A stretch of DNA of 64,000 bases. Source: Acidobacteriota bacterium. Its GTDB lineage: Bacteria; Acidobacteriota; Aminicenantia; UBA2199. The position numbers were made by a program. Positions 21,001 through 27,000 of the stretch are shown one piece after another; the stretch's first letter is position 1, and each line of letters begins with the position of its first letter. The stretch is taken from positions 24,293-88,292 of the forward strand of contig JAHIKI010000044.1 of the NCBI GenBank assembly GCA_018897435.1, given 5' to 3'.

Positions 21001-24000
21001 TCTGGTAAAATAATAATCCCTAGAATTTTAAAAAAAATAAGGAGTATGAAAATGCGGTTTGAAAAAAGAATATTTTTGTGTGCGCTTGCCGCACTGATAT
21101 TCGTGGGTGTTTCCAGTTCACTCATGGCCTGGATCGGCCCCATCACGATCGCCGACGAGCCGAAACAGATTTACGAGGACAAGGTGTCGGTCCAGTTCCA
21201 TCCTTCGGGCGCCGTTTACGTGGCTTTCATGGCTCACGACGAAACATTGGTGCGCAAGGAGATCTACCTTTACCGGTACACCGGGGATACCGCGAAGGGC
21301 GAATTGCTGGGCAAGGTGTCGGCAGGCAAAAAGTTTTGTTATGAGCCCGACATGGTCATCTCGGCGGACGGGAAAGTGCACATCAGCTGGGCCGAAGCCA
21401 ACACGGCCGGTTCGGACCAGCAGCTGATCCAGTATCGCACCTGGGATAACGGCGCCTGGTCGCCCATCATCACTCTGAAGGAGATGAACATCCCCGGCAC
21501 CCTAGATCCGAGCGGTTTCAACAAGGAGAAGATCGACGACCTGAACCTCGATGTCGACGACGCGGAGAACGTGTTCGTGACCTTCATGGTCTGGCCGCTG
21601 GCCCGCTGCAAGTTCCTCAGCAAGTATGGCGACACGGTCACCGAGGAGAACTGGTCCGTTGGCGGGCGCAGCAAACATCCCAGCGTGCAGGCGGACGACG
21701 ACTACGTTCACCTTGCCTGGCAGCAGTTGCTGGGCCTGTACACGGTCTACTATGCCCGGCGGCCGAACACTCCCGGCGCCGCCTGGCAAGCCTACGACAT
21801 CAAGGGCGGCATTCACCGTCCGGTGATCGGCTTGGACCAGAACGGCAACGCCCATGTTGCCTACATGGCCGATGATGCCGATAAGCGGCAGGTCGTTTAC
21901 AAATACTGGACCGGCAACGGCTTTTCCCCCAGGGAGACCATAACCGAGGCCCCCAGCTTGTATCAGAATGTTGAAATCGCGTTGAAGGATGACAAGAACA
22001 TGATCGTGACGGCCGGAATTTTCCAGGCCACGTCGACCACCTTAATATTCAACTGGAGGCAAAACGGCGAGTGGAACCCGGACGGCATGGTAGCCCTGCC
22101 AGCGGCAACCGGCGCTTTCGATAACCCGGCCGCGGCGTTGAGCCGGAATGACATCGGCGCCTTCGTCTATAATCATGATCGCGGTGTCTTCTTGATCCTC
22201 AGCGACCCCCTGGTCATCAACGCCCTGCCCGTGGCCGTGATCAGCGCCGACAAGGAAACCGTTTTCTGGGATGAAGAGATCACTTTCAACGGCAGCGGCA
22301 GTTCTGACAGCGACGGCACCATCGTCAAGTACGAGTGGAAGGTCATCCAGGACAACGTGATCCTGGAAGGACCGAGCCTCACCTACCGGTTCAACAAGAG
22401 CTATAACAACGTGCGGGTGCGCCTGACGGTCATTGACGACAAGGACGGCCGCGGCATCGCCGAAAAGGTTATCAGCGTTAAGGCTCTTTATACCGCTCCG
22501 GCTACCTGGTCCATGCAGCAGGTCAAGACCCTGATCTATAACCGCCAAGGCAACGTCATCAAGTGGGAGCCCAACCCCAAGAATGATGTTGACGGCTACA
22601 ATATCGTCAAGTACAAGATATTCCGCAGGGAAGCCGACGGCGATTACCAGGAAATCGGCGAAGTAGGCGCCGAAAAGCGCGCCTTCGCCGACATCAGCAT
22701 CGAAGCAGGCAAGACATATTATTACGCCGTGTCGGCGGTCGATGACCAGGGGCACAAGAGCCCATACGACAATTTTTAACGGATTGGCATCCCCATCTTA
22801 CGGCCAATCCATGCGATTTGCATATTCAATGCACAGTAAAGGAGCAGAAATGAAAAACAAAGCAAAATTATTTTTATGCGGTCTGGCGTTGGCGATGAGC
22901 GGATTGCTTATGCCCGCTCAAAGCGATACGATCGCGGCCGGCGCTGACGGGACAGTACAGAAAAAAGCGAAATGCCCGCGCCGAGTAGCGGTATTGCTTG
23001 AAACTGTCAAGCCGGCTACTTTTTCCGAGTACCGCTATTTGTCGGGCCAGGGACAGTTCGATGTAATTGCCGTCGTCAGCCCGATAGCCGGGATCGTTTC
23101 GGAAATCAAAGTCGACGAAGGCACCCTGGTCGACGCTGGCCAGGAACTGGCTATTTTGAACGCCGACCAGGACGAAAAAATAAAGGTTCTCGAGCAGGAA
23201 ACTGAAAAAAAGAAAGAAATCCTGACCGCCCGGCAAAACTGGAAAGTGAAAAGCGAAAGAGCCATCCAGACGGCTGAGCAGGATTATCAAGCAGCCCTGA
23301 CTCTTTTGGAAGAGAGCAGGATTTTGGCCAATCGAATCATTCTGGCCCCTCTGGCCGGCATCGCCCGCGTAAAAACGGTGGCTGGAGCTGAGATCGCCCA
23401 GGAAACGCTTATGTTCGAGATCGTCGATACACTGCACCTGCGGGTCAACGCGGCGCTGGATGCCGATGCGGCCGGTTTTTTCAATAGCGGCGAAAAGCTC
23501 ATGAGCGCGGCAGAGGGTTTCAGCGGCGAACTGGAAGCTGAAATCGTCGCCGTCAGCAAAAGCCAGGTTGGTTTCCGGGTGAACAACTCTGCTGGACAAC
23601 TGCGTGAGGGCATGACCATCAACTGTAAAAAATTGAAAGCCGAGCATATCGATGCCATCATGGTGCCGGCCTCCGCTATCCAGCATGACGGCCTGGGCGA
23701 TTTCGTCTATACTGCCGATAAGAAAAAAGCCAAAAAACTATACGTGACCCTCGGGGCGAGCGAAGCGGGCAAGACCATGATCGAAAAAGGCCTGGTCGCA
23801 AACACGCAGCTCATTGTTTCCGGCTTCGAATGCCTCTCTGACAAAAAGAAGATCCGCGTCGTCAACGAGGAACAGATGGCCAATGAAAAAGCAGAAGCCC
23901 TGGCCAAACAAAAAGTTGAAAAGGCCGAGGCGGAGAAAAAAACCGCGGCGCAGATCCGAGGGATCGAAGAATTTATCGCTCACCTAGAGGCCAACAGGGA

Positions 24001-27000
24001 AACTCTGCAATACGAACGTTATGAAAAAACAAAAATAAATAAACAGCCGGTGCTGAAAATCTTCTCCGGGCTGGAAACGCAAAAAAAATTAATCGAACTG
24101 ATCACGCAATACGCTGTGAAGCAGATCACTTTCGAACTAAAGGATGAACAGGTAATTTCCACCATTACCTTCAAAATCCCGGAACGGGTCGCCAAAAAAG
24201 AGGAGAAACCGGCAATCGGCGAAAAAGCCGGTCTATTCGGCGGCCGCCTGAGATTCGCCGCGCACGGTACCTACTACATAATGCTGGACAAGAACTTTAA
24301 GGATGCATATGTCGGCCTAAGTGGTTTTGGCGGTTCGCTCGCTTTCCGTTTCGCCTCCAAGATGGATTTTTGGGTTAGCGGCGGTTTGGCTGCAAAGAAC
24401 AGCACTCCCGAGTGGAGCTCGGAGGAGATGAAGTTCAGGCTGATCCCACTGTCAGCCGCTGTGCGCTATTACCTTTTGGAAAAAGGCAAGCTCAGCGCTT
24501 TTGCCGGCGCCGGCCCCAATGTGTTTATGGTCAAGGATGTGAACCCGGCCGGCGACATAAAGACCACGATCGTCGGTTTCAACGCCCTGGCCGGCGGTTA
24601 TTATCAGTTGTCCCGAAAAGTATTCGCCCAGTTGTTCTTGAAATTCAACCTGGTGCGGAAGGACCTGTACCCGGATTCCACTTTAGACGATCCTTTGAAT
24701 TTGAGCGGATTGGAATTGAACCTGGGTGTAGGGATCCGGCTGTAATTGCCTTAATACCGTGGTTTTTTTGGCAGATAAATAAAATTAGGCCGTAGTCTTT
24801 TTCCGGTAACCGGCCAGAATTGTTTTGGGTCGGGGAAAATGATTCTGCTGAATTCGTAATTGCGCATCAGGAGTGGCCTGTACCAGTTGTGCGAATCGAG
24901 AACCAGGGCATTGAACCGCCTGTTCTCGATGGCCTCCGTGATTTCCTTTTCCAGCTTCAGTTTGACCGGCCCCGGGTCGATCTTGGTTAAATTTTTTACA
25001 GCCACTTCGTGGGCGTATCGGGATTTTCCCGCCAGAAAGGGGAGAAATCCGTGCCCGGGAACCATGACATCTCCCTGCAGGCTGGCAATGGTTTTGACAA
25101 AATGGTCACCCGCTTTTTTATCTGCGGCATTCGGAATCAGCAGCAAAGGATTATAGGCAAGTATAGTGAACTGGATTAGTCCTATAGCAAACAAGAAAAC
25201 GTTTTGAACCCGGCGCGGGTCATTTTTGGGGAAAGTCACCCCCTGCCAGAATTTGGCCATTGACAAACCGAAGCCGATGGCGAGCAGGGCATGGGCGGAA
25301 ATCAGCGCGTTGCCGTAAGCCCCGTACTCCAACCGTGAAAACCACGCGGTTCCGATCATGCCCGCGGCGAAGGCGAAATAGAAAAAGAAACGTTTTTTCT
25401 TGGCCGCGATGAATTCGACAAGCAGGAATGCGAATAGAAGAAAGATCGTCACTGCTAAGGGTTTCAGCATATCGTCGGTCCAGAAGCCGATGATTCGCGG
25501 CTTAAGCAGTTTTCCGAACCAGCGCTGACCGGTCAGATCGAAAATATAGTATATATACCAGCCGTGATGAAGGGCATTTAGAATCCAGATGCTGCCCCCG
25601 ATCAGAATCGCGGATGTCCCCAGCAGGTATGGCCAGTTACGCTTTTCAAAAAAAATGGCATAGGCCAAGAGCGGCAGGGCTATCATCAGTGCCGACTGCT
25701 TGGTTAAAGCAGCCAGGAGAAGGACTGCCGCGGCTGAAACGTATGAAATCCGGGCAGGATGGAAACGAACCAGATAGGCAAAAAGGAGGATAAAAAAAAG
25801 AAACAATGAATCGATTCTGGCCAAATCGAACCAGGCGTCGCTCAGTTTGTAGGTGGCGGCAAATAGGGCAGCAGCGGTAACCGCCCACAAGCGGTCGTTG
25901 GTTTCCCGGCGCACAAACAGATAAATTAGGGTCATGATCCCCAAAGAGGCGCAAAATGAAATAAAACGCAGTGGAAAAAACCCTACGCCAAGTAATTTAG
26001 AAAAGACGGCAGCCAAATAATAAAAAAAAGGCGGATATGCGTAGGGGACGAAGTTTAATGATGGCGGCACATATAGTTCTTTTCCCGCCAGAATTTGCCT
26101 GACATGATCCACCATGCCGCCTTCCATCGCCTCGAGTTCATACGGATAAGTCATACGTAGAATTGCCGCCAGGATGTAAATAACGATGTATAGCGCACCG
26201 CAGCAAAGCAGGATGGATTTAAGATTTATCTTGAATCGCCGAGCTTTCATCATTGGTCAATCATAACACTATCGTTTGCTTGAAACAATGCAAAGCATTG
26301 CTACCGCTACATTCTATACTTGAGAACCTGCCTGCTCATGCTGTCGGGCCAGCGGTCTTGATGGCCGTTACCGTGAATTTGTAGGCCAGGCGCTTGGCAA
26401 TGGATACCGGGAGCAGATTGTATATAGGTCGAAAGCCCCACTTGTATAAAGAGGCTTTGATTCCCCTGCGAGCAATCGGCAGGGCGCGATAGTGCTCTTG
26501 TACCGATTCTTCAACCACAAAACCCTTGAACATGGCCAGGATTTCTTTCTCTGAAAAGAAATCTGTCACCGGAGGATCTTTTTCTTTGTGCTCAATATTT
26601 TCGTGTCCGAAACGAGATAGCCAGAACATCCAGGACGGTTTGCGATAGAAATGAGAAATGATCGCCCGACCGCCCGGTTTAAGAACCCTGTGAACTTCTC
26701 TGATCGCTTGGGCAGTGTTCCCGGTATGATGAAGAACTCCATTTGCCCAGACAGCATCAAATGAATTGTCAGGGAAAGAAAGCGCCAGCACATTCTCCAT
26801 CCTCACATCCTCCGCCCGCACTGCCGCGATTTTAAAATGAAGGCGGGCAAGTTCGATCGCTGCCGCGGTAAGATCTGTGGCCGTCACGCGAACCCCGCAC
26901 TTAAGGAATTCGAGGCTGTCGAATCCCATGCCGCAACCAATTTCCAGCAAGTGTTTCCCCTTGAGCTGCGAGGCCTCACGCTTTATCCGTTCCATGTTCC

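Follow-up and report, generated by a model that had tools for sequence, protein, structure and literature searches.

A conserved fusion of a periplasmic adaptor module to an outer-membrane β-barrel in envelope-glycan loci of Aminicenantes

A single gene encodes an adaptor module and an outer-membrane β-barrel

The DNA analysed here is a 64,000-nt stretch (hereafter, the window) of contig JAHIKI010000044.1 (positions 24,293 to 88,292, forward strand) from the Acidobacteriota bacterium assembly GCA_018897435.1 (Aminicenantia, UBA2199). It contains a gene for a 631-aa protein that combines an N-terminal four-domain periplasmic adaptor module with a C-terminal eight-stranded β-barrel of the outer-membrane (OM) type (Table 1). 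The first-pass annotation of the window had proposed that a single polypeptide carries both parts, and this proposal is borne out by the continuous reading frame and by the domain matches obtained with an AlphaFold2 (AF2) model and with Foldseek. The model was built from 47 family sequences and has a mean predicted local distance difference test (pLDDT) score of 80.7. The ATG at position 22850 is the credible start codon, since it follows an AAGGAG sequence (22839–22844) and the preceding gene ends at 22779. Two minus-strand open reading frames (ORFs) that overlap the gene, 22874–23686 and 23287–23661, lack support and were rejected as shadow frames.

The possibility that the fusion is an artefact, with two adjacent genes merged by a sequencing frameshift or joined in an assembly chimera, found no support and deserves almost no credence. 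The frame is continuous, a 100% identical protein is present on three contigs, and more than 60 collinear homologues from independent assemblies display the same architecture, so that the locus does not hold two separate genes. Moreover, the existence of single-adaptor fusions of the same length (631 or 623 aa) at 73–78% identity indicates that the form encoded in the window is not a product of assembly. A frameshift or a chimera is refuted as far as sequence data allow.

Table 1. Coordinates of the fusion gene, its parts and its neighbours in the window
Feature	Position (nt)	Strand	Basis or remarks
Uninterrupted open frame	22742..24745	+	Encloses the fusion gene
Fusion gene, ATG 22850 through stop	22850..24745	+	631 aa, one frame, no internal stop
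Ribosome-binding site AAGGAG	22839..22844	+	5-nt spacer to ATG 22850; read directly from the sequence
Signal peptide, aa residues 1–25	22850..22924	+	Sequence layout; putative cleavage
Four-domain membrane-fusion/periplasmic-adaptor module, aa residues ~42–340	22973..23869	+	Pfam, NCBIfam, AF2, Foldseek
α-Hairpin, aa residues 108–160	23171..23329	+	Helices H108–129/H136–160, AF2
K/E-rich helical linker, aa residues 340–363	23867..23938	+	AF2 helix, low to medium pLDDT
Small α/β domain, aa residues 370–441	23957..24172	+	AF2 pLDDT ~80–90; order α-β-β-α-β-β
Disordered linker, aa residues 446–463	24185..24238	+	pLDDT <50 in both models
Eight-stranded OM β-barrel, aa residues 467–631, plus stop	24248..24745	+	AF2, Foldseek, amphipathicity
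Carbamoyltransferase (635 aa) with 130-aa and 52-aa membrane proteins	13893..16363	-	Carbam_trans_N/C matches; small ORFs
Sulfatase-family protein	16321..17721	+	PF00884, E 1.5e-52
Upstream neighbour: secreted, propeller-like N-terminal, PKD and FN3-like C-terminal domains	20983..22779	+	PKD_4 match
PMT_2 (GT-C) glycosyltransferase, convergent with the fusion gene	24751..26253	-	PF13231, E 1.9e-10
Downstream neighbour, paralogous: same propeller-like, PKD, FN3-like layout	27521..29254	+	PKD matches
707-aa multi-pass membrane protein	29259..31382	-	~13–15 hydrophobic segments; HLSGDEPHY...EDGDFDL loop
619-aa multi-pass membrane protein	33274..35133	-	Hydrophobic segments; FFSDESTYF...FDYDLEY loop

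The N-terminal part belongs to the periplasmic adaptor superfamily

The N-terminus of the fusion protein reads MKNKAK-LFLCGLALAMSGLLM-PAQS/D (the slash marks the putative cleavage point), that is, a K-rich n-region and an h-region of about 15 residues followed by AQS/D. This layout is common to the homologues, which show a K-rich start, an uncharged stretch (median of 17 residues) and a small-residue cleavage-type motif, after which a short variable segment leads to a nearly invariant K-C-P-K-K. The sequence layout thus suggests a signal peptide that would be cleaved by signal peptidase I. Inspection of the protein and its homologues revealed no canonical lipobox at the N-terminus. Two candidate lipidation sites were considered and discarded: the 'LFLC' at aa residues 7–10 has Leu at the -1 position of the lipobox and almost no preceding h-region, and the conserved Cys42 is preceded by charged residues and lies at least 13 positions past the hydrophobic core.

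The efflux-adaptor hallmarks reported in the first pass, a lipoyl half-motif and a β-barrel domain, were recovered by PF13437, TIGR01730, AF2 and Foldseek. The PF13437 (HlyD_3) model matches the protein with 38.5 bits (cut-off, 22.2), the lipoyl half-motif is located at aa residues 74–103, and the TIGR01730 (RND_mfp) model aligns end to end with aa residues 49–337 at an E value of 4.9e-24, with a score of 84.9 that falls under its curated cut-off of 94.9. In the AF2 model, the module displays a pLDDT of about 90 over aa residues 45–337 and comprises membrane-proximal (MP), β-barrel, lipoyl and α-hairpin domains. Foldseek aligned it over approximately 340 columns with TMexC, AcrA, MexA, ZneB, MacA, CusB and BesA (E values from 4.8e-19 to ~1e-13), and a search of the PDB sequences identified the MexC-like protein 9j3d_D as the closest solved relative by sequence. 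Precomputed matches to PF25989 and PF25967 (YknX_C and RND-MFP_C) place the MP domain nearest to YknX/RND-type models. The fold, together with one curated model, places the N-terminal part in the adaptor superfamily.

Two cysteines of the MP domain, Cys42 (22973–22975, within K-C-P-K-K) and Cys328 (23831–23833, within S-G-F-E-C-L), are invariant or nearly so in the 47 aligned members, and it is possible that they form a stabilising periplasmic disulfide.

The 'long coiled coil' of the first-pass annotation had to be redrawn, since the AF2 model shows in its place a short-to-medium hairpin and a separate K/E-rich helix. The tip of such hairpins carries in pump adaptors the RxxxLxxxxxxS/T (RLS) motif, which is the docking site for TolC-type ducts (PMC3391258). 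A motif scan of the 47 aligned family members found this motif in none of them. The tip carries instead a very conserved, family-specific sequence, KKIL-x-A-R-Q-N-W-K-x-K-[SN]-E-K-A-I-Q-x-A, in which K122, R128 and A142 are invariant in the 47-member alignment. A hairpin tip that is conserved, and conserved in a non-RLS form, argues for a partner that is itself conserved but different from TolC.

A helical linker and a clade-specific domain connect the two parts

Adaptor and barrel are connected by the K/E-rich helix, a small α/β domain and a disordered linker. The α/β domain, which the first-pass annotation had overlooked, showed no Pfam match at E ≤ 10, and a 10-sequence profile found no relative of it among all PDB sequences. 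It is confined to the closer clade of the family. Shorter forms of about 555 aa join the adaptor to the barrel by the K/E helix and about eight residues.

The middle domain and the barrel also occur together without an adaptor, in P0080 and in an extra gene of locus L001 (13919–14761), whose 280-aa product is 40% identical to aa residues ~370–631 of the window protein. Loci L016, L017 and L019 likewise hold such an extra gene. It is flanked by added propeller-like/PKD genes, giving the order propeller-like, barrel, propeller-like, barrel, propeller-like.

The C-terminal part is an OmpA-like β-barrel

The assignment of the C-terminal region to an eight-stranded OmpA-like barrel with alternating hydrophobicity stands on AF2, on Foldseek and on a shuffle test. 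The AF2 model places eight strands between aa residues 467 and 630 with a pLDDT of about 85–97. Foldseek matched the region to the OmpA transmembrane (TM) domain (1bxw, E 4.5e-8, TMt 0.75; 1qjp, TMt 0.81) and further to OmpW, OmpX, NspA, Ail, OprF-N, OprG and AlkL. The odd/even alternation of strand hydrophobicity exceeded that of 1998 of 2000 within-strand shuffles. Furthermore, the connectors alternate between long and short (10/2/8/2/5/4/18 residues), and long external loops with tight periplasmic turns are the usual pattern of OM barrels. The PF13505 model (OMP_b-brl) gives the window barrel 14.4 bits (E 0.045), under its cut-off of 28.7; relatives that match the family profile at ~1e-24 pass it, with 32.4 (P0152), 33.9 (P0156) and 39.1 bits (P0167). 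The family consensus at the C-terminus, GxGhxhxF, resembles a β-signal of the type read by the β-barrel assembly machinery (BAM), with the final F present in 41 of 66 members; the clade of the window protein ends in GVGIRL or GVGILL, that is, in Leu instead of F. These models place the C-terminal part structurally within the class of small OmpA/OmpX/OmpW barrels. Because the number of strands is even, both barrel ends would face the periplasm, and the adaptor would be periplasmic as well.

TolC-type OM factors are trimeric 12-stranded barrels with a long periplasmic α-tunnel. The fusion protein showed no OEP match in Pfam, and no TolC, OprM or other OM factor chain appeared among the 50 Foldseek matches listed for the barrel. 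The notion of an adaptor fused to its own OM channel was consequently abandoned: the barrel is of the eight-stranded OmpA/OmpW/OmpX type, with the size of a monomeric barrel, rather than a TolC-like duct, the hairpin tip is not of the RLS type and no pump gene was found next to the fusion gene in the window or the annotated related loci.

The profile search also retrieved the barrel family alone, in proteins of 170–220 aa, and fused to other modules, namely an AMIN domain (P0152, P0153, P0167 and P0186), an LpoB/CsgG-like domain (P0156) and BACON repeats (P0159). Since the modules attached to it are unrelated, the barrel may serve these bacteria as a general-purpose OM anchor for periplasmic modules. 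The AMIN-barrel proteins resemble an OmpA-analogous link between the OM and peptidoglycan.

The fusion is conserved and its adaptor copy number varies

The search for the same fusion in other genomes, suggested together with the original proposal, showed it to be conserved. A word-indexed search found 66 relatives, and BLAST showed their adaptor and barrel segments to be collinear with those of the window protein. When 1.84 billion cluster representatives were searched with a profile, 83 matched at E ≤ 1e-30; among the matches listed, roughly 50–60 fit the adaptor-plus-barrel profile end to end. At the 50% identity level the fusion makes up ~50–60 clusters, almost all of which stem from Aminicenantes/Acidobacteriota metagenome-assembled genomes (MAGs). 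A scan of the GTDB species representatives yielded 23 loci. The titles of most point to MAGs of Aminicenantes, Aminicenantia or Acidobacteria, and eight bear the labels Clostridia, Patescibacteria or Chrysiogenales. Loci with such labels (L011, L013, L017, L019, L020, L026 and L031) are 45–90% identical to Aminicenantes ones, and the labels probably reflect mis-binned or mislabelled contigs. The 100% identical NCBI entry is named 'MAG: hypothetical protein KJ808_04050 [Acidobacteria bacterium]', and public annotations of family members range from 'hypothetical' to 'HlyD family efflux transporter periplasmic adaptor', 'biotin/lipoyl-binding protein' and, from JGI, 'AcrA/outer membrane protein W'.

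The family also includes tandem and triple-adaptor forms that had escaped the first pass. Proteins of about 1000 aa carry two adaptor modules ahead of the barrel, and P0069 (1331 aa) carries three. The tandem protein P0001 (1037 aa), which comes from a different assembly, is nearly identical to the window protein in the adaptor (98%), the middle domain (94%) and the barrel (99%), and its second adaptor module, ~45–49% identical to the first, sits between the equivalent of aa residue 340 and the middle domain. As judged from these sequences, near-identical strains differ by one whole adaptor module, and the copy number per chain varies. Adaptor repeats that are merely 45% identical are unlikely to have been collapsed during assembly, which further weakens an artefactual origin of the single-adaptor form.

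The fusion gene lies in a conserved glycan locus

In the window, the carbamoyltransferase trio, the sulfatase gene, a gene for a GDSL-like protein and one for a 590-aa membrane protein precede the first propeller-like/PKD/FN3 gene, which is followed by the fusion gene. Beyond it come the PMT_2 gene and a methyltransferase gene on the minus strand, the second propeller-like/PKD/FN3 gene, the gene of the 707-aa protein, HATPase_c and PHP genes, and the minus-strand gene of the 619-aa protein. Sugar-nucleotide epimerases, a small GT2 protein, further PMT-type proteins and multi-pass proteins without a family are also encoded around. The N-terminal domain of the flanking proteins gave a sub-threshold BNR_4 match (E 0.0056), and their PDB matches fall on PKD; the repeat appearance and this one match tentatively suggest a propeller-like domain. 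The carbamoyltransferase trio, as Carbam_trans, SxtJ and DUF5989, recurs near the fusion genes of L001, L002 and L033 and looks like a conserved membrane-associated carbamoylation module. The 707-aa protein had no Pfam match and no relative among PDB sequences. On inspection, both it and the 619-aa protein appear GT-C-like, with many TM segments and a D-E-x-x-Y/acidic loop after the first helix.

To evaluate the conservation of this setting, window and locus proteins were compared by tblastn with 33 loci that contain a detectable fusion homologue, covering ±10 kb per homologue; the 22 GTDB loci (L010–L032) were screened by tblastn with the window proteins rather than with Pfam. A propeller-like/FN3 homologue was present in 29 of the 33 loci, and in 27 it lay within 1.5 kb of the fusion gene. 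The 707-aa-type membrane protein followed with 22 loci, then the sulfatase (12), the carbamoyltransferase (11) and the 619-aa-type membrane protein (11), and the PMT_2 gene of the window is kept only in the closest loci. Over the two comparisons made, homologues of the 707-aa protein were counted in 12–22 loci and those of the 619-aa protein in 11–12. In 16 loci the gene immediately preceding the fusion gene encodes a homologue of the upstream neighbour, and homologues of the downstream neighbour occur in 16. The distant loci L002, L005 and L033 encode homologues of the flanking proteins without PKD (492–594 aa) immediately before and after the fusion gene, those immediately downstream having 492–502 aa. 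Even P0147, the remotest of the members examined with a profile E value of 1e-27, adjoins PMT_2, sulfatase and PKD genes, and P0101 (E 1.5e-71) adjoins a carbamoyltransferase/DUF5989/GDSL set. The glycan-locus setting described in the first pass is therefore present and conserved across the loci of the family. Regarding pumps, Pfam gave no match to ABC, RND, MFS or OEP families in the 41 main ORFs of at least 180 aa in the window, and the gene tables of 14 annotated related loci (L001–L009, L033–L036) contain no pump or TolC genes.

Several additional features of the locus deserve mention. The HATPase_c (194 aa) and PHP (327 aa) genes, at 31913–33443 on the minus strand, lie between two GT-C-like genes and also occur in L008, L013–L015 and L026. 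Upstream in L001 and L008 are genes for PilZ (a small gene, ~7 kb upstream and confined to these two loci), an Asp/Glu racemase and a CbiA/ParA-type ATPase. All of these may be regulatory parts of the glycan system. The window encodes seven large multi-pass proteins (3321–5027, 5934–7436, 8206–9789, 18962–20734, 24751–26253, 29259–31382 and 33274–35133), two of which match PMT/PMT_2 (GT-C) and five of which lack a Pfam family; two of these five have the GT-C-reminiscent D-E-x-x-Y and acidic loop after TM1, which makes the locus appear unusually GT-C-rich. The GC content, about 50% on average in the window, dips to 39% at 6001–8000, a segment that covers the gene of an unassigned 500-aa membrane protein (5934–7436), and to 41% at 52001–54000.

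A proposed OM-anchored adaptor ring and its alternatives

We tentatively propose, with a confidence somewhat short of even, that the fusion protein forms an OM-anchored adaptor ring which acts as a scaffold or conduit of an envelope-glycan system, together with the flanking proteins and the GT-C enzymes. The protein would be exported by Sec, and BAM would insert the barrel, leaving the adaptor to hang below the OM on the flexible K/E-rich helix and linker. The adaptor modules would then probably form a ring, most likely a hexamer, six being divisible by each of the module counts per chain that occur in nature (one, two and three). AcrA retains its function when fused in tandem, and the stoichiometry of pumps is 3:(3+3):3 (PMC13328181), both of which fit the natural tandem forms. 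Such a ring would provide the envelope-glycan system with a periplasmic scaffold or conduit, and not a drug pump with its adaptor; through the conserved non-TolC tip it may contact the flanking propeller-like/PKD/FN3 proteins, the periplasmic faces of the GT-C enzymes, or both. Adaptor modules have been described before in polysaccharide secretion, for example in Alg44 and in a cellulose system of cyanobacteria that pairs an HlyD-like with a TolC-like protein (PMC8892547). The ~555-aa forms have only about 35–45 residues between the MP domain and the barrel, which by our own estimate would hold the MP domain within ~50–90 Å of the OM. A link this short would be incompatible with the canonical geometry, in which a 100-Å TolC tunnel stands above an MP domain located at the inner membrane (IM). 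Of the 'export or tethering device' initially suggested, tethering fits the evidence better and export is the poorer fit.

A purely structural role, analogous to that of OmpA, OmpM or the AMIN-barrel proteins, would have the adaptor bind peptidoglycan or the IM and set the periplasmic spacing, with no transport involved. The fusion of the same barrel family to peptidoglycan-associated AMIN and LpoB-like modules, the succession of periplasmic domain, helical spacer and C-terminal barrel, and the conserved, basic hairpin tip all speak for it. Nevertheless, it leaves unexplained both the near-constant propeller-like/FN3 flanking inside glycan loci and the presence of one, two or three adaptors per chain, and beyond incidental contact no peptidoglycan-binding site is known in adaptor modules; we consider it unlikely. 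More improbable still is a standard adaptor of a tripartite efflux or type-1-secretion system, with the barrel in place of the IM anchor and with the pump and TolC-like duct encoded elsewhere. The complete four-domain fold, including the MP domain that normally touches transporters, is what such a protein should have, and the TIGR01730, RND-MFP_C and YknX_C matches agree with it. However, the TIGR01730 score stays below the curated threshold, all 47 members lack the RLS docking motif, neither the window nor the gene-annotated related loci gave a match to a pump or TolC gene, and by our estimate the MP-barrel link of the ~555-aa forms is too short.

A further alternative makes the barrel an OmpW/AlkL-like conduit, to which the adaptor ring would feed glycans in polyprenyl- or lipid-linked form, to be inserted into the OM. 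Foldseek does retrieve OmpW, OprG and AlkL, some members of the family are listed by JGI as 'AcrA / outer membrane protein W', and the locus is rich in GT-C-type enzymes, users of lipid-linked sugar donors. Yet the fold match does not separate OmpW from OmpA, OmpX and NspA, the OmpW Pfam model does not match the window protein, and there is no evidence of a lateral opening in the barrel. Furthermore, the AMIN and LpoB-like fusions share the barrel family, and a conduit role is unlikely in those proteins. Taken together, these points render the conduit very doubtful.

Some observations also weigh against the OM-anchored ring that we favour. The fusion protein is tied to the propeller-like and GT-C-like proteins by synteny alone, and the 33 loci include many near-duplicates, which leaves ~20–25 independent lineages. 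The GT-C and propeller assignments come from inspection and a single weak BNR_4 match, and the MP domain is nearest to YknX/RND-type models, which normally contact transporters. A cognate pump or TolC could lie elsewhere in the genomes, beyond the ±10 kb covered, and we infer both the ring and its periplasmic orientation.

A bolder version of the same proposal, to which we assign a rather low probability, regards the fusion protein as the central part of a trans-envelope apparatus of Aminicenantes that has not been described before, in which an adaptor ring hung from the OM, and possibly inverted with respect to pump adaptors, would work with the flanking proteins and GT-C enzymes. This apparatus would assemble, guide or display an envelope glycan or glycoprotein without TolC or an energised IM pump. 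In a sub-variant, the signal peptide would stay uncleaved, and one chain would be embedded in both membranes.

Comparison with known systems

With the pump adaptors AcrA, MexA, TMexC and MacA, the fusion family shares the four-domain fold and homology at the sequence level (TIGR01730, PF13437), and its natural tandem forms mirror their functional dimer unit. The anchors differ: pump adaptors use a lipid or a helix in the IM, whereas the fusion family has a C-terminal OM barrel. The fusion further differs in lacking the RLS tip and, in the window and the annotated related loci, an adjacent transporter or TolC gene, in its glycan locus and in its extra α/β domain. A 2026 review of adaptors gives an N-terminal lipid or helix in the IM as the only anchors (PMC13328181). 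We found no description in the literature of an adaptor fused to an OM barrel, two adaptor reviews mention no OM-anchored adaptor, and neither adaptors of Aminicenantes nor the DUF5989/carbamoyltransferase context turned up in the literature searches.

The similarity to small barrels (OmpA N-domain, OmpX, OmpW, NspA, Ail; PF13505) extends from the fold, with TMt values up to 0.75–0.81, to the amphipathic strands, the long and short loops and, at the family level, a β-signal-like C-terminal end, although the window sequence scores under the Pfam cut-off. The order of OmpA is reversed in the fusion, whose periplasmic module is N-terminal and whose barrel is C-terminal, and the module that accompanies the barrel in the periplasm is an adaptor, not a peptidoglycan-binding domain.

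Alg44 and the cyanobacterial HlyD-like cellulose co-factor likewise place an adaptor-type module in a glycan pathway and not in drug efflux (PMC8892547). Both are anchored in the IM and rely on a separate porin or TolC-like exporter, and Alg44 combines its adaptor-like periplasmic domain with a single TM helix and a cytoplasmic PilZ domain. In contrast, the fusion protein has neither a PilZ match nor an internal TM helix, appears to be anchored in the OM, and no processive GT2 synthase is consistently adjacent to its gene.

OmpM/SlpA-type tethers consist of an N-terminal periplasmic domain, a coiled coil and a C-terminal barrel; their SLH domains bind peptidoglycan-linked polymers, and their barrels have 16–30 strands. 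The overall layout of the fusion protein (periplasmic module, helical spacer, C-terminal barrel) resembles theirs.

Implications

The fusion represents an unusual and conserved architecture in a consistent non-efflux context, for which we infer a function from sequence, models and synteny. Of three hallmarks of pump adaptors, the RLS tip was absent from the 47 aligned members and a pump operon from the window and the annotated related loci, and the third, IM anchoring, may not apply. The family departs from the adaptor rule by its predicted OM anchor, its non-TolC tip, its one to three modules per chain and its link with envelope glycans, and would thus represent a reuse of the adaptor fold outside efflux. 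Labels such as 'multidrug efflux' or 'biotin/lipoyl-binding protein', given to family genes in databases, probably mislead. The hexamer model of adaptor assembly, with dimers as its units, gains independent support on evolutionary grounds from the tandem and triple fusions that occur in nature. For the Aminicenantes, an uncultured lineage widespread in sediments and the subsurface, the family provides a handle on how the cell envelope is built.

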